DNA from: Candidatus Micrarchaeia archaeon
GTDB taxonomy: Archaea > Micrarchaeota > Micrarchaeia > Anstonellales > Bilamarchaeaceae
Assembly: GCA_041649555.1 (NCBI GenBank)
Contig: JBAZMS010000002.1
Coordinates: 67,898 to 131,897, forward strand
DNA length: 64,000 nucleotides
Direction of reading: 5' to 3'
Shown here: in pieces, positions 1,830-51,335 of the stretch
How positions within the stretch are numbered: position 1 is the stretch's first letter
Layout: the number at the start of each line of letters is the position of its first letter
The notes under the pieces: generated by a model
The model's input: the letters and a program-made list of their open reading frames with translations, nothing else
Database searches by the model: none
Told to the model about the DNA's origin: nothing
Translations under genes and position numbers: made by a program

Positions 1830-1941
1830 CTTTTGTATAGCTTTTAATTATACAATACTATTTATAAACTTAACATTTCTTATACTATTTATGGTTACTC
1901 TAATCTCAACTTTCTATTCGTTTGAGCCATTCTTACCTGCA

Positions 1942-2469
1942 ATGCATAAATACTCAGCAAATAAGGTAATTCTAATGATAGATAAAGAGCCAAAAGAAAT
2001 AGTTACAAAAGCAATAGAAAAGGTAAAAGATACCTTTGGAACTGTTGCAAAAATAGAAATAGTAAAAGTTAATGGAACAGATTTATATGAAATAGCAAAA
2101 ACAACAGTAGATTTACTTGAAAAAGAGAAAGAAGTAATAGTTAATGTTTCAGGGGGATGGAAATTACTAGCTCAGGGCGTATTATACGGATGTTATGCCC
2201 GAGCTGATTTAGTTTCTAAAATAGTGTGTAATAAAATTGAGGATAATTCCATTGTAGAACTTCCCAAATTAACCTATAATTTAAGTGAGCCTAAAAGAAT
2301 ATTACTTGAAGAAATCTCCAATAGAAATGGTCGAAGTATTTCAGATATTGCAGATAAACTTTCCAAAACCCGTGGAATGCTATATCAACATTTAAAGGAA
2401 TTAAAAGATAGTGGATATGTAGATGAGAAATTTGAGATAACTGATGCTGGGAGGATGGCGTTACTATGA
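1942..2469 (+). CDS. CARF-domain (Csa3-like) + C-terminal winged-HTH regulator
   Basis: N-terminal Rossmann-like part contains 'NVSGGWK', which fits the CARF signature [DN]x[ST]xxx[RK]. The C-terminus 'ISDIADKLSKTRGMLYQHLKELKDSGYV' is a typical wHTH. The ORF track starts at 1822, but that N-terminal extension is a hydrophobic, low-complexity read-through of the promoter region; ATG 1942 (MHKYSANKVILMID) is the likely start. Confidence 0.45.
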   Translation: MHKYSANKVILMIDKEPKEIVTKAIEKVKDTFGTVAKIEIVKVNGTDLYEIAKTTVDLLEKEKEVIVNVSGGWKLLAQGVLYGCYARADLVSKIVCNKIEDNSIVELPKLTYNLSEPKRILLEEISNRNGRSISDIADKLSKTRGMLYQHLKELKDSGYVDEKFEITDAGRMALL

Positions 2470-2716
2470 GTTTATCTCGTATTTTCAAAGATGTATCATC
2501 ATGTTTATATAAAAATATAGTAAAACATACTAACATAATAGTACAAAAACATACTAAAACATGCTATTATGTTAGTACAAAAGTATGCTATGATATGTTA
2601 TTATAATGTAAGATCTTTATTTTAGGTCGGAGTACACCTCCCTGGTTTCCTTTATAAATATAATATCACTTATTCTATTGAGAAAGTGATAAAAAGCTTG
2701 TTGAAGAGGCATTATT
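2470..2716. promoter_or_regulatory. intergenic control region with a 13-bp-arm inverted repeat upstream of the R-M operon
   Basis: 'ACTAACATAATAG' ... ~22 nt ... 'CTATTATGTTAGT' are perfect reverse complements; repeated 'AAACATACTAA' half-sites; 'TTTATAAATATAAT' TATA-like element ~60 nt upstream of ATG 2717. Confidence 0.35.
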
Positions 2717-3577
2717 ATGAAAAAAGATCGCAACGATCCAAAACCCTTTGTTAAATGGGCAGGTGGAAAAAGACAATTAATAGATACCCTGTTTAACAAT
2801 ATTCCAGAGTCTTTTAACAATTATCATGAATCCTTTTTGGGTGGCGGAGCATTATATTTTAAACTATGGTCTGAAGGTCTTATAAAAAAAGCATTTCTTA
2901 ATGATTTTAATCACGATTTGATTAATGTTTATCAAATAATCAAAAGCAGGCCTAAAGAACTTATAGAGGAATTAAAATCTGGAAAATACAAAAATGAAAA
3001 AGATACTTTTTATAATATAAGAAAAAGTAAACCTCATGACTTGGTGGAAACAGCAGCAATTTTTATATATCTTAATAAAACCGCTTTTAATGGACTTTAC
3101 AGGGTAAATTCTAAAGGAGAATTTAATGTTCCTTTTGGAAAATATTCCAACCCAAAAATATGTGATGAGGAAAATATAATGATCGTTTCAGAATCTCTTA
3201 AAAGAGCTGCATTATCTTATGGCGACTTTTCACAAGTATTAAAAAATGTTAAAAAAGGGGATTTTGTATATCTTGATCCTCCCTATCATCCAATATCAAA
3301 AACCTCAAATTTTACTAATTATACTAAATTAGAGTTTAAAGAGGAAGACCAAATAAGGCTTAACGATACCTATAATAGATTAGATAACTCGGGTGCATTT
3401 GTTATGCTTAGCAATAGTACAGCGCCGTTTATTGTAGATCTTTATTCTAATTATAATACTCTAAGAGTTGATGCCAGAAGGGCCATAAATTGCAAAGCAG
3501 ATAAAAGAGGTCTGGTATCTGAACTAGTAGCTTTAAATTATGAGGTAGAATCCCATGCGCCATTTAGAAATTTATAA
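2717..3577 (+). CDS. Dam-family N6-adenine DNA methyltransferase (DpnM/MboA-like, alpha class)
   Basis: Motifs 'FVKWAGGKRQL', 'ESFLGGGALYF' (FxGxG) and 'DPPY' in the Dam (D12 class) order. Confidence 0.8.
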   Translation: MKKDRNDPKPFVKWAGGKRQLIDTLFNNIPESFNNYHESFLGGGALYFKLWSEGLIKKAFLNDFNHDLINVYQIIKSRPKELIEELKSGKYKNEKDTFYNIRKSKPHDLVETAAIFIYLNKTAFNGLYRVNSKGEFNVPFGKYSNPKICDEENIMIVSESLKRAALSYGDFSQVLKNVKKGDFVYLDPPYHPISKTSNFTNYTKLEFKEEDQIRLNDTYNRLDNSGAFVMLSNSTAPFIVDLYSNYNTLRVDARRAINCKADKRGLVSELVALNYEVESHAPFRNL

Positions 3578-4475
3578 TAAAAAAGATCTCAATAATGAAG
3601 AAAAAGTGTTCGATTTTTTAATAAATACTTTAATTCCTTCTGTTACCTCTTGGGATTATTTTGTTAATTGGGATAAAGTAAATAAGAATTTAAATGGAAT
3701 AAAAGTTGAATTAAATCTTCTAAATTCTCTTTTGGATTCCCAAAATTTGGAAAATGATTTTATTTCTCTTGTAAAAAAATACCCAAATATAATAAAAGCT
3801 ATTCCAGTTTTGCTTGCAGTAAGAGAAAAGAATTTAAAAATTCTTAAAGATTATCAAGAGAAAGATTTAGCCTATTTAAGTTTTGACTTTAATAAAACCG
3901 CTGTAAGTGATTCTGAAGCCAAAAACTATTTCATTTTTCTTAAAGAAACTCAATTAACTGAACTTTTCAAAAATAAAAAAATTAAAAATTTTGTTGATTA
4001 TGTTTTTGGTGTGGAAGTTGGGCTTGATTCCAATGGAAGAAAAAACAGAGGAGGAAAATTAATGGAAAAGATAACCGAGGTATTTGTTAAGGATGCTATT
4101 TCCAATAATTTTGAATATTTAGCCCAAGCAACACCTAAAAAAATAAAATTAAAATGGGGTTTTGAAGTGAAGTTTGAGAAATCCCAAAGAAGTTTTGATT
4201 TTGCTATTTTTAATGTTGAAAATAAGAAATTATATCTTATTGAATCTAATTTTTACAATGGCGGTGGCTCAAAACTTAAATCAGTTTGTGGAGAATTCAA
4301 AACTTTGTTTAATGAATTAGGTAAACAGGGAATAGAGTTAATATGGATAACCGATGGAAAAGGCTGGCTTACTGCAAGAAATCCTTTAAGAGAAACCTTT
4401 GATAATAATCATTTTGTATTTAATTTAGAGCTTTTAAAATTAGGTGCATTAAAAGAGGTAATTACAGGAGTGTAA
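3555..4475 (+). CDS. Type II restriction endonuclease, DpnII/MboI family (GATC-type)
   Basis: Blocks 'GVEVGLDSNGRKNR', 'NFYNGGGSKL', 'WITDGKGW' and 'LRETFD' recalled as conserved in R.DpnII/R.MboI; overlaps the upstream MTase stop by 23 nt (operon). Confidence 0.7.
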   Translation: MRHLEIYNKKDLNNEEKVFDFLINTLIPSVTSWDYFVNWDKVNKNLNGIKVELNLLNSLLDSQNLENDFISLVKKYPNIIKAIPVLLAVREKNLKILKDYQEKDLAYLSFDFNKTAVSDSEAKNYFIFLKETQLTELFKNKKIKNFVDYVFGVEVGLDSNGRKNRGGKLMEKITEVFVKDAISNNFEYLAQATPKKIKLKWGFEVKFEKSQRSFDFAIFNVENKKLYLIESNFYNGGGSKLKSVCGEFKTLFNELGKQGIELIWITDGKGWLTARNPLRETFDNNHFVFNLELLKLGALKEVITGV

Positions 4476-4478
4476 TCT

Positions 4479-5210
4479 GTGAAAATTAAGCCTGAAAATT
4501 TTGAATTAGAAAATACTAGTGTTTGGTCTTTTCCTGATAGGGGGGACTGGGCAACACATAAAGGAGATTATAGGGGCAATTTTTCACCATACATTCCAAG
4601 AAATGTAATTCTAAGATATTCAAAAGAAAATGATTTAATTTTAGATCCAATGTGTGGAAGTGGCACAACTCTTGTTGAGGCAAAACTTTTGAATAGGAAT
4701 GGTATTGGTTTTGATATAAATTCAAATGCAATTGAGTTTACTAAAAGTAGATTAAAATTTGACTATCACACCAGGACAAAACAAAGTATATTTTTAGGAG
4801 ATGCTAGAAAATTGAATTTAAAGAATGAATCTATCGATCTTATTGTTTGCCATCCGCCCTATTTGGATATTATAAAGTATAATCCTGAAAATGAAAAAGA
4901 TATTTCAAATATTCATAATCTTGATCAGTTTTTGGGTGAAATTAATTTAATTTCAAAGGAATTCTATAGAGTCTTAAAACCAAATAAATACTGCGCTATT
5001 CTTATTGGAGATACAAGAAGAAAAGGAATGTATATTCCACTTTCTTCTAAGGTTATGGATGTTTTTTTAAGGGCTGGATTTAAGTTAAAAGAGGATATCG
5101 TTAAAATTCAATGGAACTGCAAAACAACTCCTTACTGGAAGAGTTTATCTAGTAAATATAATTTTTTACTAATAATGCATGAGCATTTGTTTATCTTTAA
5201 GAAAAGTTAA
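4479..5210 (+). CDS. second DNA methyltransferase of the R-M system (N6-A/N4-C type; 'DPMCGSGTT' precedes 'CHPPY')
   Basis: AdoMet motif I 'LDPMCGSGTTLVEA' at residue ~56 and catalytic 'SIDLIVCHPPY' at ~125; GTG start at 4479 preceded by an 'AGGAG' Shine-Dalgarno ~10 nt upstream. Confidence 0.65.
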   Translation: MKIKPENFELENTSVWSFPDRGDWATHKGDYRGNFSPYIPRNVILRYSKENDLILDPMCGSGTTLVEAKLLNRNGIGFDINSNAIEFTKSRLKFDYHTRTKQSIFLGDARKLNLKNESIDLIVCHPPYLDIIKYNPENEKDISNIHNLDQFLGEINLISKEFYRVLKPNKYCAILIGDTRRKGMYIPLSSKVMDVFLRAGFKLKEDIVKIQWNCKTTPYWKSLSSKYNFLLIMHEHLFIFKKS

Positions 5211-5222
5211 TTGTTTTTCTGT

Positions 5223-6098
5223 TTAATCACTCAGTTTTTTTAACCATTTTATGAGTTTATCTAATTTTTCTGAATTTTTTCTATATTCTGAGATATACTT
5301 CATTATTTCATACATTGAGGTAATTATGATATTTTTTCCACTACGAAATTTTTTTATGTCTATTGCAGTCATTATATTATTTAACATAGTTTTAATCTCG
5401 TCATTTTCGTTTAATCTAATTGCTAATTCGTTTAATTCATATAATTCACCAATATTTTTTGAGTTTATACTCTCTTTAATGCTTTGTTTAACTATAGAAT
5501 CATCCATAAAATCTTTTTTTGAGTTATCATTAAGTTCATTTCCCCAAATATACTGATATCTTTTACAAAATAATTCCCAAAATTTTGCACTATTTTTAAT
5601 CGAATTTATACTCATTCTTTTCTTCATAATTTCTTTTAAAACTTCGACATCTGCATCATTAAATTTTATCTGTTTTGTATGAGCGCCAATACGTAATGGA
5701 ACTAATCCATCATATTTAATAAATTCAAATGGGTCATTTGATTTTTTAACTTCTAATATAAAATAATCATCTTTATCAATTGAATATTTTTCATGAGATT
5801 CTATGTTACTATCTAACTTTTCTAATTTATTTTTTTTGTATTTTTCAATTGACGCCCATTTTCGTTCCTTTATCCATTCGTTAGTTTTATTTTTATCACC
5901 ACTTTTTATTATGAAATATCCACCGAGACTGTTGTAAAAAGATATAATCCCTTTAAAAAAATCTTCATTATCTGGTAGTCCATTTTCACATTCTTTAAGC
6001 TCATAAAATTGATTTTCTTCTTCCCCTTTTATACCTCCTTCATTTATTTTTGTTTTTATTTCTTCTAAACTAGGTTTAATATCTATTAAATTTATCAT
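5223..6098 (-). CDS. AlbA_2 / Schlafen-like divergent-AAA domain protein
   Basis: N-terminus 'EENQFYELKE...FFKGIISFYNSLGGYFIIKSGD' matches the AlbA_2 pattern (E..E.K ... AFANxxGGyliiGv.D); the C-terminal ~200 aa are unassigned. Confidence 0.45.
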   Translation of the reverse strand: MINLIDIKPSLEEIKTKINEGGIKGEEENQFYELKECENGLPDNEDFFKGIISFYNSLGGYFIIKSGDKNKTNEWIKERKWASIEKYKKNKLEKLDSNIESHEKYSIDKDDYFILEVKKSNDPFEFIKYDGLVPLRIGAHTKQIKFNDADVEVLKEIMKKRMSINSIKNSAKFWELFCKRYQYIWGNELNDNSKKDFMDDSIVKQSIKESINSKNIGELYELNELAIRLNENDEIKTMLNNIMTAIDIKKFRSGKNIIITSMYEIMKYISEYRKNSEKLDKLIKWLKKLSD

Positions 6099-6854: not shown

Positions 6855-7901
6855 TTAAATCCCCCTAATAAACTCCCCAAACAACTCCCTGCTATCATTT
6901 GGCCCAGGACAGCTTTCAGGATGAAACTGAACAGAAAATATAGGTTTAGAAATATGCCTCATCCCTTCATTACTATTATCCAATAGATTATAATGAGTAA
7001 CTTCAAAACAAGAAGGAACCTTGGAAACAGCAAACCCGTGATTTTGCGTAGTGATTAGAACCTTTTTCCTAAAACAATCATAAACAGGATGATTACTTCC
7101 CCTATGCCCAAACTTCAATTTATAAGTAGAACCTCCAAATGCATGGGCAATACACTGATGTCCAAGACAAATTCCAAACATAGGCAAATCACAAAGTTCT
7201 CTAATAACCTTATGGACATTTTTCAAAAGAGCAGGATCCCCCGGGCCATTTGAAATTACAACTCCGGAAGGATTAAACTTTCTAATCTCCTCGCTTGTAA
7301 AATTATATGGAACAGAAATAACTTCAATTCCTCTTTTATTCAATTCACGGATTATTCCCATCTTTACCCCTAAATCAATCAATACGACCTTCTTATTTCC
7401 ACTTCCAAACCTTTCAACTTTTGAAGTGCCAACCTTTGATACAAAATCAGTCAAAGAATATTCAAATTTCAAATTTTTAATTATCTTTTCAATATCAGGT
7501 TTTTCATTCTCATATACTGCAAGGCAGGATGAAACTACCCCAAATTCTCTTATTTTTTTGGTAATTTCACGGGTATCCACTCCAAAAATTCCTCCAACCC
7601 CAAAATCTTCCAAATACTTATCAAGGCCAGAAGAAAAATCCAACTCCCTTACAACAAACCCTGATACCCAAACCTTGGAACTCTCGCAATTCTTTATATC
7701 CAACCCATAATTTCCAATCAAAGGATAGGTTAAAGTTAAAATCTGCCCAGCATAGCTTGGATCAGTTAACGCTTCCTGATAGCCCTGCATTGAAGTATTA
7801 AACACTAATTCTCCAGTTCTAAAGCCAATTGCCCCAAATCCAGCCCCAAAAAATACACTTCCATCTGATAATATGAGAACCGCATTTTTATTCATAATCA
7901 T
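6855..7901 (-). CDS. carA: carbamoyl-phosphate synthase small (glutaminase) subunit
   Basis: CarA N-domain 'QGYQEALTDPSYAGQILTLTYPLIGNYG' and GATase 'GICLGHQ'. Start moved from the ORF-track value (8033) to ATG 7901 (MIMNKNAVL), which sits 4 nt downstream of a GGAGGT Shine-Dalgarno; 14-nt overlap with the carB stop. Confidence 0.8.
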   Translation of the reverse strand: MIMNKNAVLILSDGSVFFGAGFGAIGFRTGELVFNTSMQGYQEALTDPSYAGQILTLTYPLIGNYGLDIKNCESSKVWVSGFVVRELDFSSGLDKYLEDFGVGGIFGVDTREITKKIREFGVVSSCLAVYENEKPDIEKIIKNLKFEYSLTDFVSKVGTSKVERFGSGNKKVVLIDLGVKMGIIRELNKRGIEVISVPYNFTSEEIRKFNPSGVVISNGPGDPALLKNVHKVIRELCDLPMFGICLGHQCIAHAFGGSTYKLKFGHRGSNHPVYDCFRKKVLITTQNHGFAVSKVPSCFEVTHYNLLDNSNEGMRHISKPIFSVQFHPESCPGPNDSRELFGEFIRGI

Positions 7902-10900
7902 AAAACCTCCGTATCTCATATTCCTCTTTTGAATACTTTTCAATAGCTTCAACAAACTCAACAGCAGTGCGGATATTTGTAATGCATGGAATTCCAAATT
8001 CAATGCTTTTTCTTCGGATAATAAATCCGTCAATATAGCTTTCCTCTTCCTGCGAGGGAATATTAATCACCAGATCTATTTTTCCAAGGTCAATCAATTC
8101 AATTATATCATAGCTTTCTTTTTCATTTCCAAGCTTATTTACAATTCTGATCTCTCCAATTTCACGAAGTTCAAATGCAGTTCCAGGAGTTGCATATAAA
8201 ATAAATCCAAGGGAATGCAGTTTTCTTGCAATCTCCAAAACTTCTTTTCTGTCTTCTTTGCGGACAGTCAAAAGGACACAACCTTTGGAAGCAACACAAA
8301 TCCCACTTGATTTTAATGCCTTATAATACGCTGATTCAAAATCAGAGCCAATTCCCATGCTCTCTCCGGTGCTTTTCATTTCAGGGCCAAGTAAGATATC
8401 CTCTCCGGGAAGTTTAAGAAAAGGAAAAACAACCCCCTTTACTGCATAATGGGTTATTTTCCTTTCTTTTTCTAAAAGTTTTTCACCAAGCATTGATTCA
8501 ACAGCCAGTTTAACCAGGGAAATATCAATTGATTTGGAAAGAAAAGGAACAGTCCTGCTTGCCCGCGGGTTTGCCTCCAAAATATAAATTTCATTGTCCT
8601 TGACTGCAAACTGGATATTCAAAAATCCGGTTATTCCAAGGGAAAGTGAAATCTCCCGGGTATATTTTTTTATTTTCTCAACTATCTTATAGGATAAATT
8701 GAGGGAAGGAATTACAATATTTGCATCCCCTGAATGCACTCCTGCAAACTCAATGTGCTCCATTACTCCTCCAATGAATACATTAGAGCCGTCACATACT
8801 GCATCAACCTCGCATTCAATTGCATTATCAAGGTATTTATCAATTAATACAGGCTTATCTTCGCTTAGTTCAATTGCACTGTCAATATATTTTTCCAATT
8901 CCACTAAAGAAAACACAATCTGCATTCCGCGCCCTGCAATCACATAAGAAGGGCGCACAATTATTGGATAGCCAAGTTTTTGTGCAGCATCAAATGCCTC
9001 TTCTTTTTTTCTTACAGTAAGGCTTGGGGGCTGTTTTATTTTAAGCCTGTCCATCAAATCCTTGAATTTCTCCCTGTCCTCTGCAATGTCTATACTTTCA
9101 AAAGATGTTCCAAGTATTTTAACCCTGTCTTTTAATTTTTCAGCCAATTTAATTGAAGTCTGTCCTCCAAGCTGCACTATGACCCCTAATAAATTCTCAT
9201 CCAATTCATTCTCAATTATATTCAATACGCTCTCATAATCCAAAGGCTCAAAATATAATCTTGAACTCGAATCAAAATCAGTGCTTACTGTTTCAGGGTT
9301 ATTATTAATCATTACAGATTCAATTCCCATCTTCTTTAAGGCAAAGGAGGCCTGAGAGCAGCAATAGTCAAATTCTATTCCCTGTCCAATCCTTATAGGC
9401 CCTGATCCGATAATTATTACTTTTTTCTTTTTCAAAGAAACTGCCTCGTTTTCAGATTCATAAGTGGAATAAAAATAAGGGGTTATTGCCTCAAATTCTC
9501 CAGAACAGCTGTCAACCATTTTATATACCGGAATTATTCCAAAAGATTTCCTGAGATTTCTTATATTCTCTTCTGTTTTTCCCTTCAGGCTTGCAATTTT
9601 AAGATCACTAATCCCAAGTTTTTTATATTCAGATAGGTTTTCTTTTGTAAGAGTTTCATTTTCAATTTTTTTCTCGGTTAAAATCAGTTTTTCAATTCTT
9701 TTCAAAAACCATCTGTTTATTTTTGTAATAGAATAAATCTCCTCGATTGTTTTTCCATCCCTGAAGGCATCAAAGAGTGCAAATAAGCGGAGATTGGTTG
9801 CAGGCTCAAGATGTTTGATATAATCAAATTTAACAGGAATTTTAATCTCAAGCCCTGCCACTGCCTTTAAGAGAGCCTCTTCAAAACTTCTTCCAATTGC
9901 CATAACCTCTCCGGTACTTTTCATCTGTGTTCCAAGGGTTCTTTTTGCAGAAGAAAACTTGTCAAAAGGCCAGCGGGGAATTTTAACCGTTATATAATCA
10001 AGAGATGGTTCAAGCGAGGAGGTTTTTCCAATTATCGGATTTATGATCTCATTTAGGGTTTTTCCAATGGCAATTTTTGCTGCAATGCGCGCAATAGGAT
10101 ATCCAGTAGCTTTTGATGCAAGGGCAGAAGAACGGGAAAGGCGGGGATTTACTTCAATTACGCTGTATTCTCTAGTTTTCCTGTTATATGCAAACTGGAC
10201 ATTGCATGAACCTTGTATTTCAAGAGCCCGCACTATTTTAATTGAAGCATCACGAAATCTTTGGTGCTCTTTATCAGAAAGGGTTTGTGAAGGCGCAACA
10301 ACAATGCTTTCTCCTGTGTGTATTCCCATTGGGTCAAAATTTTCCATATTGCATATGACAATACAATTATCACCCGAATCCCTGACAATCTCATATTCAA
10401 ATTCCTCCCATCCTTTCACGCTTCTCTCAATTAAAACCTCATGATTCATACTAAGCTTGAATGCAACATCCAGCAGGTTTTTAAGTTCGGTTTCATTATT
10501 TGCAAATCCCCCTCCGCTTCCACCAAGGGTAAATGCAGGGCGCACAATTACAGGGTAATTTATTTTCTCGGCATAAGAATAAGCAGAAGAGTGGTCCTTA
10601 ACACTATAGCTTTCAAGTATTGGAATTCCGATTTCTTTCATCAGGGAATTAAATAATTCCCGGCTCTCGGCTTTTTCAATTGAGTTAAAATCAGTTCCAA
10701 TGAGCTTAACATTATATTTTTCAAGTATTCCCTTTTTTTCAAGCTCAACTGCAAGATTGAGTGCAGTCTGCCCTCCGCAGGTTGCAAGAATTGAATCTAT
10801 TCCCTCGTTTATGATTATTTTTTCAATTGTTTTAATATCCAGGGGCTCAATATAAACTGCATCAGCTGTTTGCCTGTCTGTTTGAATTGTTGCAGGGTTA

Positions 10901-11046
10901 GAATTCACCAAAACAACAAATACTTTTTCTTCCTTTAGTGCCCTGCATGCCTGTGTTCCTGAATAATCAAATTCTGCGCTTTGTCCGATTATAATCGGTC
11001 CGGAACCTATTACAAGAACTTTTTTTACATCAGGCATCAAAAACAC
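7888..11046 (-). CDS. carB: carbamoyl-phosphate synthase large subunit
   Basis: 1052 aa; duplicated ATP-grasp halves (VIGSGPIIIGQSAEFDYSG ... IIGSGPIRIGQGIEFDYC) and a C-terminal MGS-like domain. Confidence 0.9.
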   Translation of the reverse strand: MFLMPDVKKVLVIGSGPIIIGQSAEFDYSGTQACRALKEEKVFVVLVNSNPATIQTDRQTADAVYIEPLDIKTIEKIIINEGIDSILATCGGQTALNLAVELEKKGILEKYNVKLIGTDFNSIEKAESRELFNSLMKEIGIPILESYSVKDHSSAYSYAEKINYPVIVRPAFTLGGSGGGFANNETELKNLLDVAFKLSMNHEVLIERSVKGWEEFEYEIVRDSGDNCIVICNMENFDPMGIHTGESIVVAPSQTLSDKEHQRFRDASIKIVRALEIQGSCNVQFAYNRKTREYSVIEVNPRLSRSSALASKATGYPIARIAAKIAIGKTLNEIINPIIGKTSSLEPSLDYITVKIPRWPFDKFSSAKRTLGTQMKSTGEVMAIGRSFEEALLKAVAGLEIKIPVKFDYIKHLEPATNLRLFALFDAFRDGKTIEEIYSITKINRWFLKRIEKLILTEKKIENETLTKENLSEYKKLGISDLKIASLKGKTEENIRNLRKSFGIIPVYKMVDSCSGEFEAITPYFYSTYESENEAVSLKKKKVIIIGSGPIRIGQGIEFDYCCSQASFALKKMGIESVMINNNPETVSTDFDSSSRLYFEPLDYESVLNIIENELDENLLGVIVQLGGQTSIKLAEKLKDRVKILGTSFESIDIAEDREKFKDLMDRLKIKQPPSLTVRKKEEAFDAAQKLGYPIIVRPSYVIAGRGMQIVFSLVELEKYIDSAIELSEDKPVLIDKYLDNAIECEVDAVCDGSNVFIGGVMEHIEFAGVHSGDANIVIPSLNLSYKIVEKIKKYTREISLSLGITGFLNIQFAVKDNEIYILEANPRASRTVPFLSKSIDISLVKLAVESMLGEKLLEKERKITHYAVKGVVFPFLKLPGEDILLGPEMKSTGESMGIGSDFESAYYKALKSSGICVASKGCVLLTVRKEDRKEVLEIARKLHSLGFILYATPGTAFELREIGEIRIVNKLGNEKESYDIIELIDLGKIDLVINIPSQEEESYIDGFIIRRKSIEFGIPCITNIRTAVEFVEAIEKYSKEEYEIRRFYDYE

Positions 11047-11128: not shown

Positions 11129-11152
11129 TTATTTTATAATTTAAAAACTGAT

Positions 11153-11260
11153 AAAAAAGGTTATGAAAATAAAGGTTATAAAAATAACCTAAAATATTAA
11201 GAATATAAATATAATACCTAATAAAATAATAGATACCTTTAAAAAAGGTTATGAAAATAA
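11153..11260. promoter_or_regulatory. upstream region of the Arch_ATPase gene with two exact 20-nt direct repeats and a 7-bp-arm inverted repeat
   Basis: 'AAAAAAGGTTATGAAAATAA' at 11153-11172 and 11241-11260; 'AGGTTAT-AAAA-ATAACCT' at 11173-11190. Confidence 0.5.
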
Positions 11261-11267
11261 TCTTATT

Positions 11268-12641
11268 ATGAAATTCTACAACAGGGAAGCTGAAAAAAAG
11301 GCATTGGAAGATGCAATAAAAAAATCCCCGGCCCTAATTCTAATTAAAGGCAGAAGGAGAGTTGGAAAAACCGCCCTGATACTTAATTCAATAAAAGAAA
11401 ATGCAATCTATTTTTTTATAGACAATAAAAAAACTGAAAAAAATCTTTTATTTGAATTCGAAGAAATATTAAAAAAGGAGTTGAATCTTCCAAATTACAT
11501 AAAAATTGAAAAATGGGAGCATTTCTTTCAAATTATTTTTGAAAGCAAAAAAACAATTATACTAGACGAATTCCAGAGAATTCTGGGCATCTCCCCTTCT
11601 GCAATAAACCAACTGCAAAAATTCTGGGATTTGAATCCTCCAAAAAATGCCCTGATACTCTCCGGCTCAAATATAGGAATGATAAAAAAAATATTCATAA
11701 ATGAGGGTTCCCCACTATTTAAAAGAGCGACAATGGACATGACCTTAAAATCATTGGATTTTTCGGTATGCAAAAAAATACTAAAAGATCTTGGAATAAA
11801 AGATTTTGAAAACCAGTTTAAAATCTATTCAATTATAGGCGGGATTCCTTATTACTATAGTCTTTTGCAGAATGAAACTATAGAATCATGGAAGGATGTT
11901 GTAAAAATCATATTTCTCAATCCGTTTTCTCCGCTAAAAAATGAGGTAAATGATACATTAATAGAAGGTTTTGGAAAAGAGCATTTAAGTTATTATGCAG
12001 TATTAAATGCAATTGCCCTTGGAAAAACCACAAAAAAAGAAATCTCTGATTTTTCAGGAATATTGCCTTCTTCCATTTCCCCTTATTTATATGATTTGGG
12101 AAATCTTTTGGATATAATAGAATATGAAATTCCGATAACTGAAAAAAAACCGTGGAAAACAAAGCTTGGAAGATTTATTCTAAAGGATAATTTCTTCAGA
12201 TTTTGGTTTAAATTTATATTTAGGCATCAAAGTATTTATGAAAAAGCGAATTATTCATATTTATTTGAATTAATAGAAAAGGATTTTGATTCATTTTCAG
12301 GATTTTCATTTGAAAATGTTGCAAGGGAATTTATACTAAAATTAAACAATAAAAATAATCTTCCGGTTAAATTTGACAAAATCGGCAGATGGTGGGATAG
12401 AAAAGGTCAGGAAATAGACATGGTTCTAATTTCTGATAGGGATGATGCAATAATGCTTATTGAATGCAAATGGAAGGAAGATGCAAACCCGGAAATGATA
12501 TTGTCCTCTCTAATGGAAAAGGAAAAATTCCTAAACCATAAAAAGAAAAATGTTTTCTATGGAATTATTGCAAAAAGTTTTAAAAATAAAACAAAAAATG
12601 CAATAGTTTTTGATATTAATGATCTGGAAAAAAATTTATAA
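11268..12641 (+). CDS. archaeal ATPase (Arch_ATPase/AAA + DUF234-type C-terminus)
   Basis: Walker A 'GRRRVGKTAL', Walker B-like 'IILDEFQ', and a C-terminal 'IGRWWDRKGQEIDMVLI...LIECKWKE' DUF234 signature. Confidence 0.7.
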   Translation: MKFYNREAEKKALEDAIKKSPALILIKGRRRVGKTALILNSIKENAIYFFIDNKKTEKNLLFEFEEILKKELNLPNYIKIEKWEHFFQIIFESKKTIILDEFQRILGISPSAINQLQKFWDLNPPKNALILSGSNIGMIKKIFINEGSPLFKRATMDMTLKSLDFSVCKKILKDLGIKDFENQFKIYSIIGGIPYYYSLLQNETIESWKDVVKIIFLNPFSPLKNEVNDTLIEGFGKEHLSYYAVLNAIALGKTTKKEISDFSGILPSSISPYLYDLGNLLDIIEYEIPITEKKPWKTKLGRFILKDNFFRFWFKFIFRHQSIYEKANYSYLFELIEKDFDSFSGFSFENVAREFILKLNNKNNLPVKFDKIGRWWDRKGQEIDMVLISDRDDAIMLIECKWKEDANPEMILSSLMEKEKFLNHKKKNVFYGIIAKSFKNKTKNAIVFDINDLEKNL

Positions 12642-41175: not shown

Positions 41176-42141
41176 TTATTTTTTAATTAAATAATTATAT
41201 CCAGGTGTCCATTCATCAGTTCTAAGAATTACTGAATCTATCGTATTTATTACATTTGGAAATTTTTCCTTTAATTTTTTAATTATTCCATAGTATTCAT
41301 CATAATTTTTAATCACGAATTCAAGTTCTATTCTCCAAATATTTCTTATAAAATATTGGATTTGAGGTATTTGGCTGCAATATTCCAATAACATCTTTTC
41401 CTCCTCTTTGGTATAACTGTCAATTTTGATCATTGCCTTATAATGTTCAAGATTTAGTTTTATCAAATCAATTTGGACTCTATATTGGAGTATTATCTCT
41501 AATTTTTCCATCCTTTTTATTTTTGAAATTACAGTTGTAGGGTTTGTTGAGGCATATCTTGCTATCTCCACTGTAGAACTTCTTGCATTGGAAATGAGAT
41601 ACTCTAATATTTTTTGATCTGTTTTATCTAATTTATTCTGGATAATTTTACCTGCAAATTCTACAGGTTTACATAGCTCATTATTAAAATACATTTTTGG
41701 ATATTGCTTAACATCTAAAAGCCAGTCTCCATAAAAATCAATAATTATGTCTTTAAATTCAGAAATAATCTTATTTTTTAAATCATAAAAAACATAAATA
41801 TCATCTGAATATGCTGCAAATATAAGATCCCATGAGCCGTCGCATTCTCCCATCCAGTATATATTTATAAATTTTCTAAGAGAATCGATAAGAACTTCTT
41901 TTCTGTTTGGAATATTTTTTAATTTAATATATACTTTAAATAACTGAAAACCCATTTTATTTGGATTTATTGAGGTTGTAAATCCAGTGAGTATCCCATT
42001 TTTTATGAGCTGATTTATTCTATATGCAACTGTTTGTCTTGAACGGCGTATTTTTTTGCCAAGTTCACTATCTGAAATTCTGCAATTTTTATCTAATTCA
42101 CTTAAGATTTGTTTGTCGATTTTATCGAGTTTATATTCCAT
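41176..42141 (-). CDS. tandem Lrp/AsnC-type transcriptional regulator (two HTH + RAM modules)
   Basis: 'DKIDKQILSELDKNCRISDSELGKKIRRSRQTVAYRINQLIKNGIL' and a second copy 'DKTDQKILEYLISNARSSTVEIARYASTNPTTVISKIKRMEKL'. ATG at 42141 (MEYKL) preferred over the GTG at 42150. Confidence 0.6.
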   Translation of the reverse strand: MEYKLDKIDKQILSELDKNCRISDSELGKKIRRSRQTVAYRINQLIKNGILTGFTTSINPNKMGFQLFKVYIKLKNIPNRKEVLIDSLRKFINIYWMGECDGSWDLIFAAYSDDIYVFYDLKNKIISEFKDIIIDFYGDWLLDVKQYPKMYFNNELCKPVEFAGKIIQNKLDKTDQKILEYLISNARSSTVEIARYASTNPTTVISKIKRMEKLEIILQYRVQIDLIKLNLEHYKAMIKIDSYTKEEEKMLLEYCSQIPQIQYFIRNIWRIELEFVIKNYDEYYGIIKKLKEKFPNVINTIDSVILRTDEWTPGYNYLIKK

Positions 42142-42250
42142 AAATATCACTTATATTTAGCATTTTAAAAGAAAAAGTATTAAAATAGTATGTTTTTGCA
42201 AAAAATTGAAAGATATATTTAATATATTTCTAATGTTCTAATAGATGTGG
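42114..42250. repeat. bidirectional promoter region, copy A (Lrp <-> radical SAM)
   Basis: ~130-nt segment ~90% identical to 43513-43650, including the first 9 codons of the Lrp gene on the minus strand. Confidence 0.75.
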
Positions 42251-49074: not shown

Positions 49075-49176
49075 TATAATCAGTTCATTTTAAAAGATTT
49101 GCGTTCAAATCTGTTTATTTTTGGTTTAATCAGTTCTAATCTGCTAGATTTTGCCTTAATCAGTTCTAATCTGTCT
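49075..49176. repeat. three direct copies of a 'TAATCAGTTC(T/A)AATCTG' element in the histone/speH divergent promoter
   Basis: Copies at ~49077, ~49128 and ~49157; the last two are 17/17 identical and 29 nt apart. Confidence 0.6.
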
Positions 49177-49243
49177 TTTTTTGAAAAAAACCTTGGAAAA
49201 CTAAGGGAATAGCTTTTTAAACATTTTGTAAATTAAATAAAAT

Positions 49244-49762: not shown

Positions 49763-51335
49763 TTGGAGGTGATCTATCCGCAGGTTCCCCTACGGATACC
49801 TTGTTACGACTTAGCCCTCCTCACACTTCCCCGATTCGAACCTGACTATGATCAGGGCCTCATCGAAAAAATATTCGGATGACTTGACGGGCGGTGTGTG
49901 CAAGAAGCAGGGACACATTCACCGCGAGATAGTGACTCGCGATTACTAGCCATTCCAGCTTCATGAGGGTGAGTTGCAACCCTCAATTCGAACTATGGTT
50001 GGATTTAGGGGATTTGCTTCTCCTCTCGGAGTTGCGGCCCATTGTTCCAATCACTGTATGCCGCGTGTAGCCCAAGGCATTCGGGCCATACTGACCTACC
50101 GTCGCCCACTTCTTCCTCCCATTTAACACGGGCAGTCCTCTTAAAGTGCTCCATATCCGCAGATATAGATAGCAACTAAGAGCATGGGTCTCGCTCGTTT
50201 CAGGACTTAACCTGACAGTTCACACCACGAGCTGACGATGGCCATGCAACACCTCTCGGCTTGTCAGGCAAGATCTTTAGTCTGACCTTCATACTGCCGT
50301 CGGCCTTGGTGATATTTCTGGCGTTGTATCCAATTAAACCGTAGCATCCACGGCTTGTGGTGCTTCCCCGCCAATTCCTTTAAGTTTCAATCTTGCGATC
50401 GTACTCCCCAGGCGGCAGACTTAACACTTACATACCTAAAACTTAAAAATTTAAGTTATAAGGTTCTACGCTACAGCACTTCCCTAACTTACGTTAGAGA
50501 AACACCAGAGTCTGCATCATTTACTGCTAGGACTACCGGGGTCTCTAATCCCGTTCGCTCCCCTAGCCTTCGTCCCTCACCGTCAGAAACGTTTTGATTG
50601 GGCGCCTTCGCCACTGATAGTCCACCTAGGATCAACGGATCGTAATCTTTAAATTGCAAATTTTAGACGCAGTTTAAAGATTTTTACCCCTACCCCAGGT
50701 GTACTCCCAATCTCCCCCGTTCTCTAGCCTAACAGTATCTACTGCACGCCTTAGAGTTAAGCCCTAAGATTTCACAGTAGACTTAATAAGCCGGCTACGG
50801 ACGCTTTAGGCCCAGTATACGTGGGTACCACTCGAGGCGCTGGTATTACCGCGGCGGCTGCCACCAGTCTTTCCCACACCCTTATTCTCCAAGTTATTTA
50901 CACTTGGCAAAAGACATTGGCAAAGCCAATGCCACTCAGAATCCCCCTATCACGCTTTCGCGCATTGTAAAGTTTTCGTCCCTGCTGCATCCCGTAGGAC
51001 TAGGGCCCTTGTCTCAGTGCCCTTCTGGGGGCCACCACTCTCATGGCCCCTAGAGATTATAGGTTTGGTGAGCCGTTACCACACCAACAGCCTAATCCCC
51101 CGCAGTCCCGTCCTATGGCGGTCTGGCTACAATTTGCCAGCCTTTTGAATGATTAAGCATTCCAGCATAAATCATCTATCGTGGATTATCCTCAGTTTCC
51201 CGAGGTTATACACGTCCTTAGGGTAGGTTGACTACGTGTTACTCAGCCTTGTGCCACTTTTGGAAGCCCAAAAGTAGACTTGCATGGTTTATTCGGATTC
51301 TGATAGCAGTACCCTCCAGTAGGATCAACTGGAAT
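49763..51335 (-). rRNA. rrs: 16S ribosomal RNA (stand-alone, no linked 23S or spacer tRNA)
   Basis: Minus-strand reading gives 5' 'ATTCCAGTTGATCCTACTGGAGGGTACTGCTATCA...' and 3' '...AAGTCGTAACAAGGTATCCGTAGGGGAACCTGCGGATAGATCACCTCC'. Universal blocks are present (the 515 region 'GTGGCAGCCGCCGCGGTAATAC', the 806 region 'GGATTAGAGACCCCGGTAGTCC'). Confidence 0.9.

Follow-up and report, generated by a model that had tools for sequence, protein, structure and literature searches.

The csa3-like gene at positions 1891-2469 (+) of a 64,000-nucleotide stretch of Candidatus Micrarchaeia archaeon DNA (GenBank assembly GCA_041649555.1, contig JBAZMS010000002.1, positions 67,898 to 131,897 of the forward strand; this whole stretch is called the window below) is a lineage-conserved chromosomal gene behind which different cassettes have been inserted, and not a component of the restriction-modification (R-M) unit that follows it here. 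Its product is a bona fide Csa3-family (CARF3-clade) regulator, with a CARF domain followed, at the C-terminus, by a winged helix-turn-helix (wHTH). The gene is vertically conserved in Micrarchaeota, with relatives in Woesearchaeota, Aenigmarchaeota, and Nanoarchaeota, and stands at the head of a variable restriction and defence island. An earlier note, made from the letters of the window, had described it as an orphan Csa3-like regulator and a candidate controller of the adjacent R-M operon. The gene and the elements belonging to it are:

1834-1854: 21-bp palindrome TGTATAG-CTTTTAA-TTATACA, 6 nt upstream of the TATA box; likely operator
1861-1868, forward strand: TATA box of the csa3-like gene, TTTATAAA, from sequence reading, with ATG 1891 lying 30 nt downstream
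1891-2469, forward strand: csa3-like CARF and wHTH regulator, 192 aa (CARF ~1891-2265, wHTH ~2287-2460)
1909-1932, forward strand: pocket loop T7-F-Y-S10-F-E-P-F14, within the gene
2143-2163, forward strand: motif 2, NVSGGWK (N85-K91 counted from ATG 1891), within the gene

The comparison that bears on its status covers ~90 loci: 24 from Micrarchaeota genomes, ~62 from metagenomes, and several long contigs. Family assignments for these loci and for the window, and the family counts given below, rest on the best 25 families of each scan. The family as a whole is a small one: among 1.84 billion proteins, a limit of E <= 1e-3 gathers 326 representatives and one of E <= 1e-30 gathers 39; the Micrarchaeota orthologues are 47-79% identical, and no relatives were found on viral contigs in IMG/VR. 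Upstream, the neighbourhood is conserved. Housekeeping genes recur there, most of them on the other strand (of 90 open reading frames [ORFs], FtsZ/tubulin accounts for 11, HAD for 10, and AAA ATPases for six), and a beta-CASP/RMMBL protein of ~452 aa recurs upstream on the annotated long contigs. In the window, a 121-aa ORF and a HAD hydrolase gene lie 5' of the csa3-like gene, both on the opposite strand.

Downstream, the arrangement recurs while the content changes. The first ORF is co-oriented with the csa3-like gene in 68 of 72 non-redundant loci, and usually starts between -26 and +50 nt from its stop codon. Two spacings stand out, one of +9 nt, seen in 16 of the loci, and one of -4 nt with an ATGA overlap, seen in 15. 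The +9 junction reads TGA-GGTGAnnnn-ATG, placing a Shine-Dalgarno sequence directly on the stop codon. What follows changes from genome to genome, but is overwhelmingly restriction or defence, and nearly all the loci examined conform to this. Among the genes in first position downstream are AlbA_2-HATPase_c_4-HTH, RmuC, D12 methyltransferase, UvrD-PDDEXK, DUF1016 (DUF1016/YhcG), ResIII, MmeI/Eco57I, GmrSD, and HARE-HTH; second and third genes include N6_Mtase, N6_N4_Mtase, Eco57I, HsdM/R/S, DpnII, MvaI, and C5 methyltransferase. Restriction cassettes seen are DpnII M-R-M (the window and loci L007 and L041), MvaI/BcnI M-R-M, type I HsdR/M/S, and type IIG Eco57I/MmeI; other cassettes seen are GmrSD, PLD-SNF2 helicase, HARE-HTH nucleases, AIPR, TIR, BsoBI R-M, and a NucS-like nuclease. 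Long-contig loci also show the csa3-like gene followed by TIR, BsoBI R-M, and GmrSD. The proposed link to restriction-modification thus stands in one respect, the association being non-random, with restriction or defence genes behind orthologues almost everywhere, but not in another: the gene is not dedicated to the R-M system of the window.

The commonest first cassette (9 of 66) encodes an AlbA_2 (Schlafen)-HATPase_c_4-HTH protein of ~440-465 aa (L002, L010, L014, L022, L032, L066, and others). In every case it overlaps the stop codon of the csa3-like gene, the overlap being 4 or 26 nt, and PADLOC models for pAgo-associated proteins also match it.

Distant DPANN relatives of the csa3-like protein, with 26-46% identity and labelled Aenigmarchaeota, Woesearchaeota, or Nanoarchaeota, show the same layout. 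Downstream of these are a HinfI R-M system (L103); GmrSD, UvrD-PDDEXK, and a C5/Eco57I methylase (L104); and, in three Woesearchaeota loci (L105-L107), GIY-YIG/DUF2779/HATPase_c_3/ResIII genes.

The boundary between conserved and variable sequence is sharp. Pairs of related loci can be aligned through the upstream genes and the csa3-like gene itself, and similarity is lost 0-11 nt past its stop codon. In the pair L010/L044, 2008 nt ending at position +5 align at 95.6% identity and the sequences beyond are unrelated, and the same breakpoint is found in the pairs L079/L085, L003/L005, L004/L006, and L002/L032. A search with a profile of the last 30 residues also turned up extra copies of the C-terminal 10-37 codons of the gene, 17 in all, in 12 loci and with up to five per locus. 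Their distribution is one-sided: all 17 are downstream and on the same strand, with none upstream and none on the opposite strand. Every remnant examined closes with a stop codon, and in several cases a short junction resembling a Shine-Dalgarno sequence comes next, then the ATG of the following gene. One such array is at 8582-16580 of L032/L100 (Ga0209514_10000001, a 1.37-Mb contig), where the order is csa3-like gene, AlbA_2, remnant, DUF488 and a 254-aa ORF, remnant, AIPR, remnant, NucS-like, remnant, type IIG R-M. Further remnants, by position in their own loci, are:

L035: 1940-2014 and 2602-2682
L002: 6806-6916
L034: 9520-9585
L022: 2499-2546 and 3880-3969

Because breakpoints fall at the stop codon and 3'-end remnants lie between cassettes, the pattern left when an inserting element restores the end of its target, we infer that site-specific recombination into the gene's 3' end is how cassettes arrive. 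A possible recombinase was seen once, at 4383-5378 (-) of L007/L031: a tyrosine recombinase (Phage_integrase) directly after the same DpnII M-R-M cassette as in the window, at its far end. It has no tblastn relatives in the other loci or in the window.

In the window itself the inserted DNA is a three-gene DpnII/MboI-type M-R-M system, for which GATC specificity is predicted from family membership:

2465-2477, forward strand: left copy of a 13-bp direct repeat, TATGAGTTTATCT, spanning the csa3-like stop codon; putative insertion (attachment, att) core
2470-2716, forward strand: 247-nt leader of the R-M operon, 25.5% G+C, with one GATC at 2612; cassette-borne
2508-2608: 34-nt tandem repeat, ~2.1-3 units, containing a perfect 14-nt inverted repeat
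2651-2658, forward strand: TATA box of the R-M operon's own promoter, TTTATAAA, assigned by consensus only
2717-3577, forward strand: D12-class (Dam/DpnM-like) N6-adenine DNA methyltransferase (Pfam MethyltransfD12 6.6e-64; PADLOC MTase_II 4e-98)
3555-4475, forward strand: DpnII/MboI-family restriction endonuclease, GATC type (Pfam DpnII 1.1e-90; PADLOC REase_II 4.4e-91)
4479-5210, forward strand: second methyltransferase, N6_N4_Mtase, DpnA/MboC-like (Pfam 5.2e-27; PADLOC MTase_II 3e-89)
5250-5262, forward strand: right copy of the 13-bp direct repeat TATGAGTTTATCT, exact, 40 nt past the last R-M gene

The repeat was found with a 90-nt query against the 12 kb downstream. Between its two copies G+C is 0.26-0.29, vs. 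0.32 for the window. The csa3-like gene ends at 2469 and the methylase begins at 2717, so that the 247-nt distance given in the earlier note is correct; it is among the largest spacings between the gene and the first downstream ORF in the 72 non-redundant loci. Homologues of the gap were found neither in 88 loci nor in the rest of the window (blastn, blastx), and the gap region has no Rfam match. The gap appears to be part of the inserted DpnII cassette. In L007 and L041, whose DpnII cassettes have 75-78% protein identity to this one, the cassette begins 9 nt after the orthologue, without such a leader or palindrome.

Some further observations concern the cassette and its edges. A 46-aa ORF at 2466-2606 (+) has no homologues and is probably AT-rich noise rather than a gene; its ATG shares bases with the stop codon of the csa3-like gene (ATGA), as do the first cassettes at -4 nt in 15 other loci, and it could be a relic junction. 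Two GATC sites, at 2726 and 2735, lie 9 nt apart at the beginning of the methylase gene, in its first 20 nt. The window as a whole has fewer GATC sites than expected (122 observed vs. 184 expected, ratio 0.66), with GTAC (0.62) and ACGT (0.32) also under-represented. Just beyond the cassette, at 5223-6098 (-), a 291-aa ORF with G+C of 0.236, a weak Schlafen/AlbA_2 match (2.4e-4), and no PADLOC match has a 3' end overlapping the right 13-bp repeat; it may be another gene of the island.

The csa3-like gene had been placed at 1942-2469 in the earlier note, but a start at Met 1942 would remove strand beta1 and the beta1-alpha1 pocket loop from the protein. The start is instead ATG 1891, because an identical 192-aa NCBI protein, from a 263-kb contig, begins at that codon (MVTLISTFYSFEPF); because the N-terminal sequence upstream of Met 1942, TLISTFYSFEPF (T-L-I-S-T-F-Y-S-F-E-P-F), is kept in 39 of 39 aligned homologues; and because a TATA box precedes this ATG by 30 nt. 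The open frame of 1822-2469 contains the gene, and its extra length was rightly taken as read-through of promoter DNA: 1822-1890 holds both an operator-like palindrome and the TATA box. The sequence TTTAWAA followed by CTTAAC is found at the same distance in orthologous loci, and the 30-nt spacing between TATA box and ATG fits a leaderless archaeal mRNA.

The promoter palindrome is a family feature. Within the 64-kb window, TGTATAG-N7-CTATACA with up to one mismatch occurs at 1834-1854 only. In orthologous loci a palindrome is likewise found ~56 nt upstream of the ATG, and its arms co-vary (TGTCTATA..TATAGACA, TGTACA..TGTACA, TGTTAAGG..CCTTAACA); the strict form of the element is present in 25 of 68 loci, vs. 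a background of 0.013 per 110 nt. Csa3 factors and MM_0565 of Methanosarcina mazei act as dimers on promoter DNA, MM_0565 on its own promoter (PMC7465815, PMC8844856), and because of this a dimeric wHTH protein is proposed to bind 1834-1854 and regulate its own gene. In L008 there is a second copy, GTATAG-N7-CTATAC at 4047-4067, at the 5' end of a UvrD-PDDEXK gene that is oriented divergently.

At the protein level, assignment to the Csa3 family is well supported. The N-terminal two-thirds match Pfam HFX_2341_N (2.6e-9; 38 bits vs. a cut-off of 30) and Csa3_N (1.5e-7; 31.9 bits vs. a cut-off of 27), with a weaker match to CARF_Card1, and the C-terminal third matches HTH_5/ArsR (1.5e-6) and other winged-helix families. 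The PADLOC model "CARF3--CARF" matches end to end (5.4e-57), followed by CasR (5e-27) and Csa3 (1.2e-17). An AlphaFold2 model built on an alignment of 39 homologues has a mean pLDDT (predicted local distance difference test) of 94.1, and the topology b1-a1-b2-a2-b3-a3-b4-a4-b5-b6, then a three-helix winged helix: that is, a six-stranded Rossmann-like CARF fold at the N-terminus. Foldseek searches of the PDB with the full-length model place Csa3 on top (6wxq 1.8e-9, 2wte, 6w11), and after it Can2, the CARF-HTH ring nucleases Sis0811 and Sso1393, Csm6, Cam1, Card1, and Cad1. The Csa3 architecture read from the sequence (Rossmann-like N-domain, NVSGGWK, C-terminal wHTH) is thus confirmed by Pfam, PADLOC, and AlphaFold2, and the structural comparison that had been suggested as a check returned a CARF fold with Csa3 as best match. 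The recognition helix sequence YQHL (YQHLKEL) is almost invariant among orthologues.

The ligand pocket is only partly that of Csa3. Motif 2, N85-V-S87-G88-G89-W-K91, conforms to the signature [DN]x[ST]xxx[RK] given in the earlier note: G88 and K91 are invariant, and N85, S87, and G89 are kept in at least 90% of the 39 homologues. It is through this motif that Csa3 binds cyclic tetraadenylate (cA4) (PMC8844856). Motif 1 of Csa3 (hydrophobic-G-F-(N/D)-x-hydrophilic-F; T7-M-G9-F10-N11-E12-T-F14), however, is replaced by T7-F-Y9-S10-F11-E12-P13-F14 in an alignment made by eye on the beta1 register, with E12 and F14 kept. In Csa3, F10A and G96A each abolish cA4 binding (PMC8844856). With motif 1 replaced, the ligand may not be cA4; a nucleotide ligand is plausible from the pocket sequence, but cA4 should not be assumed.

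What the protein does for the genes behind it can be approached from these elements together. The mode of action that seems most likely, and that we favor with somewhat better than even confidence, is that the protein regulates its own promoter in a manner modulated by a ligand, and that the transcript from this promoter runs on into the cassettes. A dimeric Csa3-like protein would bind the promoter palindrome and autoregulate a leaderless transcript, which in most genomes would run straight into the cassettes across a stop codon, Shine-Dalgarno sequence, and ATG, or across an ATGA overlap. Since the cassettes abut the stop codon, regulating the csa3-like promoter would regulate them too, and a ligand in the CARF pocket would tune expression of whichever cassettes were plugged in. 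The gene's 3' end would take in new cassettes through site-specific recombination; the one in the window, the DpnII M-R-M cassette bounded by the 13-bp direct repeat, would be unusual in carrying its own 247-nt leader. As this leader has a TATA box, a Shine-Dalgarno sequence (GAGG at 2706-2709, 7 nt ahead of ATG 2717), and repeats, any control here would be by read-through from the csa3-like promoter, and not via the gap palindrome. On this reading the protein is probably a sensor-regulator and the anchor of the island, rather than the C protein of this R-M system.

Several observations weigh against such a scheme. Among the loci searched, extra operator copies beside defence genes are found in L008 only; remnants were found in 12 loci only, with none in most; an integrase is present in only one (L007) of ~90 loci; and the 13-bp repeat, taken alone, is modest evidence (E = 0.012). 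The ORFs of the loci were called mechanically, and many of the metagenome contigs are short. The adenine-stacking residues G9-F10-N11 are replaced by Y9-S10-F11, and neither a cyclase nor Cas10 was seen within the 64 kb of the genome inspected. Finally, the R-M system here has promoter-like elements of its own, and functional coupling to the csa3-like gene may be weak in this case.

Many of the same facts could also be read as showing a landing pad and nothing else, and this is the main rival, though on balance we think it rather unlikely. The 3' end of the gene would then be an attachment site in the way that tRNA genes are, the regulatory targets would lie elsewhere, for example in a global regulon like that of MM_0565, and the defence genes would be functionally unrelated to the regulator. 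Breakpoints exactly at the stop codon, 3'-end remnants, and conserved upstream with variable downstream synteny are all as expected for a pad of this kind. So too are the confinement of the operator to the gene's own promoter in each locus (L008 excepted), the TATA box and Shine-Dalgarno sequence belonging to the R-M system of the window, and the precedent of MM_0565, which affects many genes but does not regulate the adjacent cas genes (PMC7465815). It is less easily reconciled with the identity of the pad, which is a sensor of the CARF type, a domain otherwise tied to antiviral signalling, or with cassettes that are almost always co-oriented and abut the stop codon through a Shine-Dalgarno or ATGA junction, so that co-transcription is hard to avoid. 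The persistence of the layout across deeply diverged DPANN lineages, with proteins only 26-46% identical, also argues against it.

A second alternative concerns the protein rather than the island: it could be mainly a ring nuclease of the Crn1-like CARF-HTH type, degrading cyclic oligoadenylate, and not a transcription factor. The best full-length TM-scores are indeed to Sis0811 and Sso1393 (0.62-0.65), and S10 in the beta1-alpha1 loop and K91 in motif 2, both invariant in the close family, correspond to the Ser/Lys catalytic and binding pair of the Crn1 enzymes (S11/S12 and K106/K169; PMC9638899). This pair is not diagnostic, since Card1 has it too and does not cleave cA4 (PMC9638899), and S10 is not kept in more distant relatives. 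The 23 PADLOC matches are all to CARF3, CasR, Csa3, CARF4, CARF1, or CARF_m1, with none to CARF7; DNA binding is favored by a promoter palindrome and a recognition helix that are both conserved; and no source of cyclic oligoadenylate is known in these organisms. We therefore regard ring nuclease activity as the main function as quite unlikely.

There remains the role proposed for the gap palindrome in the earlier note, in which the protein would be a dedicated controller of the DpnII-type R-M operon, a C-protein analogue binding the 14-bp inverted repeat or the tandem repeats in 2470-2716 and so timing expression of methylase and endonuclease. The palindrome is real: a perfect 14-nt inverted repeat (TACTAACATAATAG) at 2528-2541 and 2564-2577, with a 22-nt spacer, is reached by none of 2000 dinucleotide shuffles and is the longest among all 247-nt tiles of the window, and the gap has an RNA fold z-score of -2.98. 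Palindromes are bound by wHTH dimers, this one lies between the regulator and the R-M promoter, and the same R-M type stands behind orthologues in three loci (the window, L007, and L041). Control through it is nonetheless very unlikely, in that the conserved palindrome of the family is at 1834-1854 and has no copy in the leader, whose inverted repeat is unrelated in sequence to TGTATAG..CTATACA; the gap has no homologue in the loci examined and is absent from L007 and L041, where 9 nt separate stop codon and cassette; unrelated cassettes stand behind orthologues that are 55-79% identical and have an invariant YQHL helix; and the protein is unlike C proteins in size and fold. The gap repeats could be recombinase arm sites, an operator belonging to the cassette, or an RNA hairpin. 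A 29-nt similarity between 1861-1889 and 2651-2679 (79% identity) was also considered, but is probably due to chance or AT-rich TATA-box context, and was discounted because the CTTAAC of orthologous csa3 promoters is absent from the R-M promoter.

C proteins such as C.PvuII and C.AhdI are Xre-type helix-turn-helix proteins of ~80-100 aa, mobile together with their R-M unit and usually encoded ahead of the endonuclease. The csa3-like protein resembles them as a helix-turn-helix protein encoded upstream of an R-M operon, with a palindrome at its own promoter and probable autoregulation. It differs in being 192 aa long with a sensor domain, lineage-conserved, and fixed while cassettes change: it is not a small Xre-type protein co-varying with the R-M system, and no operator is shared with that system.

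Among characterized CARF proteins the closest comparison is with Csa3a and Csa3b of Saccharolobus/Sulfolobus (2WTE, 6W11, 6WXQ), which have the same CARF and C-terminal wHTH in ~200 aa, share motif 2 (small-G-G-hydrophobic-basic; S87-G-G-W-K91 here vs. T94-M-G96-M-R98), and bind palindromic promoter elements; a palindrome is also conserved at the csa3-like promoter. Identity to them is only 12-16%, however, motif 1 is replaced, and the csa3-like gene has R-M and defence genes as neighbours instead of a type I-A or type III CRISPR-Cas locus, with its 3' end as an insertion point. MM_0565 is likewise a CARF-wHTH protein of ~200 aa in the HFX_2341_N/Csa3-like sequence family, and starting from a DPANN relative one retrieves such proteins of Methanosarcina at 33% identity. 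MM_0565 forms a dimer, binds its own promoter, and regulates the mobile-element gene cas1-solo, with a ligand that is not known (PMC7465815); unlike the csa3-like gene, it lies beside a type I-B CRISPR locus and has global effects on transcription, and no array of defence cassettes has been reported behind it. The effectors Can1, Can2, and Card1 (CARF4) share the loop N-[IV]-[ST]-G-G-x-K (N-[IV]-[ST]-G-G-T-K in Can2/Card1) and a Ser in the beta1 loop, but in these the CARF domain is fused to PD-(D/E)XK nucleases activated by cA4, where the output here is a wHTH.

CARF regulators outside CRISPR loci are not without precedent: some CARF genes are found there, and an association with R-M systems is noted for CARF regulators of the RtcR-like type (Makarova et al. 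2014, PMC4012209). These CARF-AAA+-HTH proteins resemble the csa3-like protein as CARF-type regulators linked to R-M rather than CRISPR. They differ in being sigma-54 activators from bacteria, in which a divergent CARF domain is combined with an AAA+ module, and no role as an insertion site has been described for them.

One further reading goes beyond autoregulation with read-through, and we offer it tentatively, as possible rather than probable. The csa3-like gene and its 3' end might be the platform of an integron-like system in DPANN archaea, gathering largely promoterless restriction and defence cassettes, inserted site-specifically at its last codons, into an array punctuated by 3'-end remnants under a single CARF-governed promoter, with a nucleotide second messenger switching the entire exchangeable arsenal on or off. 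Its origin could be a source other than CRISPR, or even the cell that hosts these episymbionts. Co-oriented cassettes behind one promoter, with repeated site remnants and restoration of the target 3' end, are known from integron platforms and from integrative elements directed at the 3' ends of tRNA or protein genes. Apparent likenesses here are the co-oriented array, the remnants between cassettes in 12 of the loci, breakpoints at a conserved site, and a 3' end that would be restored. On the other hand there is no adjacent integrase (Phage_integrase was found at L007 only, at the far end of its cassette), the site would be the coding 3' end of a regulator gene, and mobility is deduced from the arrangement of sequences.

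The window as a whole supports the description of the gene as one without CRISPR-Cas context. No CRISPR-like array was found in the 64 kb (Tandem Repeats Finder and a direct-repeat search), and there was no Cas family among the top 25 families listed per scan for 64 window ORFs (PADLOC, Pfam), where a weak Cas match may lie outside the list, or among the top 25 families for neighbours of ~70 orthologues. Other genes of the window include those for RtcB, carbamoyl-phosphate synthase, fumarase, TsaD, spermidine synthase, and NDK, and an archaeal 16S rRNA gene at 49764-51335 (-). A second CARF gene was looked for with a sequence profile, which finds the csa3-like gene only. The 324-aa product of 41176-42150 (-) matches PADLOC Csa3/CasR/CARF3 models through its winged helices alone (residues 6-55 and ~157-222), with no CARF domain, and comparison of 62 window ORFs by hhalign gave a wHTH match only; it was rejected as a CARF protein. 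Two sets of repeats elsewhere in the window were also noted. Three copies of a 21-nt element, TAAAAAAGGTTATGAAAATAA, are found at 11152-11260, between the divergent carB (7888-11046, -) and a gene at 11268-12641 (+), and a 30-nt tandem repeat of 2.7 copies lies at 49103-49183, ~600 nt past the 3' end of the 16S rRNA gene.

For annotation, the immediate gain is a gene start corrected to 1891. The NCBI name of the identical protein, [quoted passage not shown], carries a label, CRISPR-associated Csa3, that is misleading for this family. CARF sensors have been understood almost entirely as receivers of the cyclic oligoadenylates of type III CRISPR systems; the lineages considered here are mostly without such systems, and they conserve a Csa3-type CARF regulator that stands ahead of R-M and other innate defence genes instead. 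No description of this arrangement was found in the literature on Csa3 or CARF proteins with R-M, Micrarchaeota, or DPANN. If the regulator does control the cassettes behind it, nucleotide second messengers would govern restriction systems, connecting defence layers in a way not described so far. The stop-codon breakpoints and stacked 3'-end remnants, for their part, mark a precise and searchable hotspot for defence islands in DPANN archaea, one that can serve in the search for new defence genes and for the recombinase and ligand involved.

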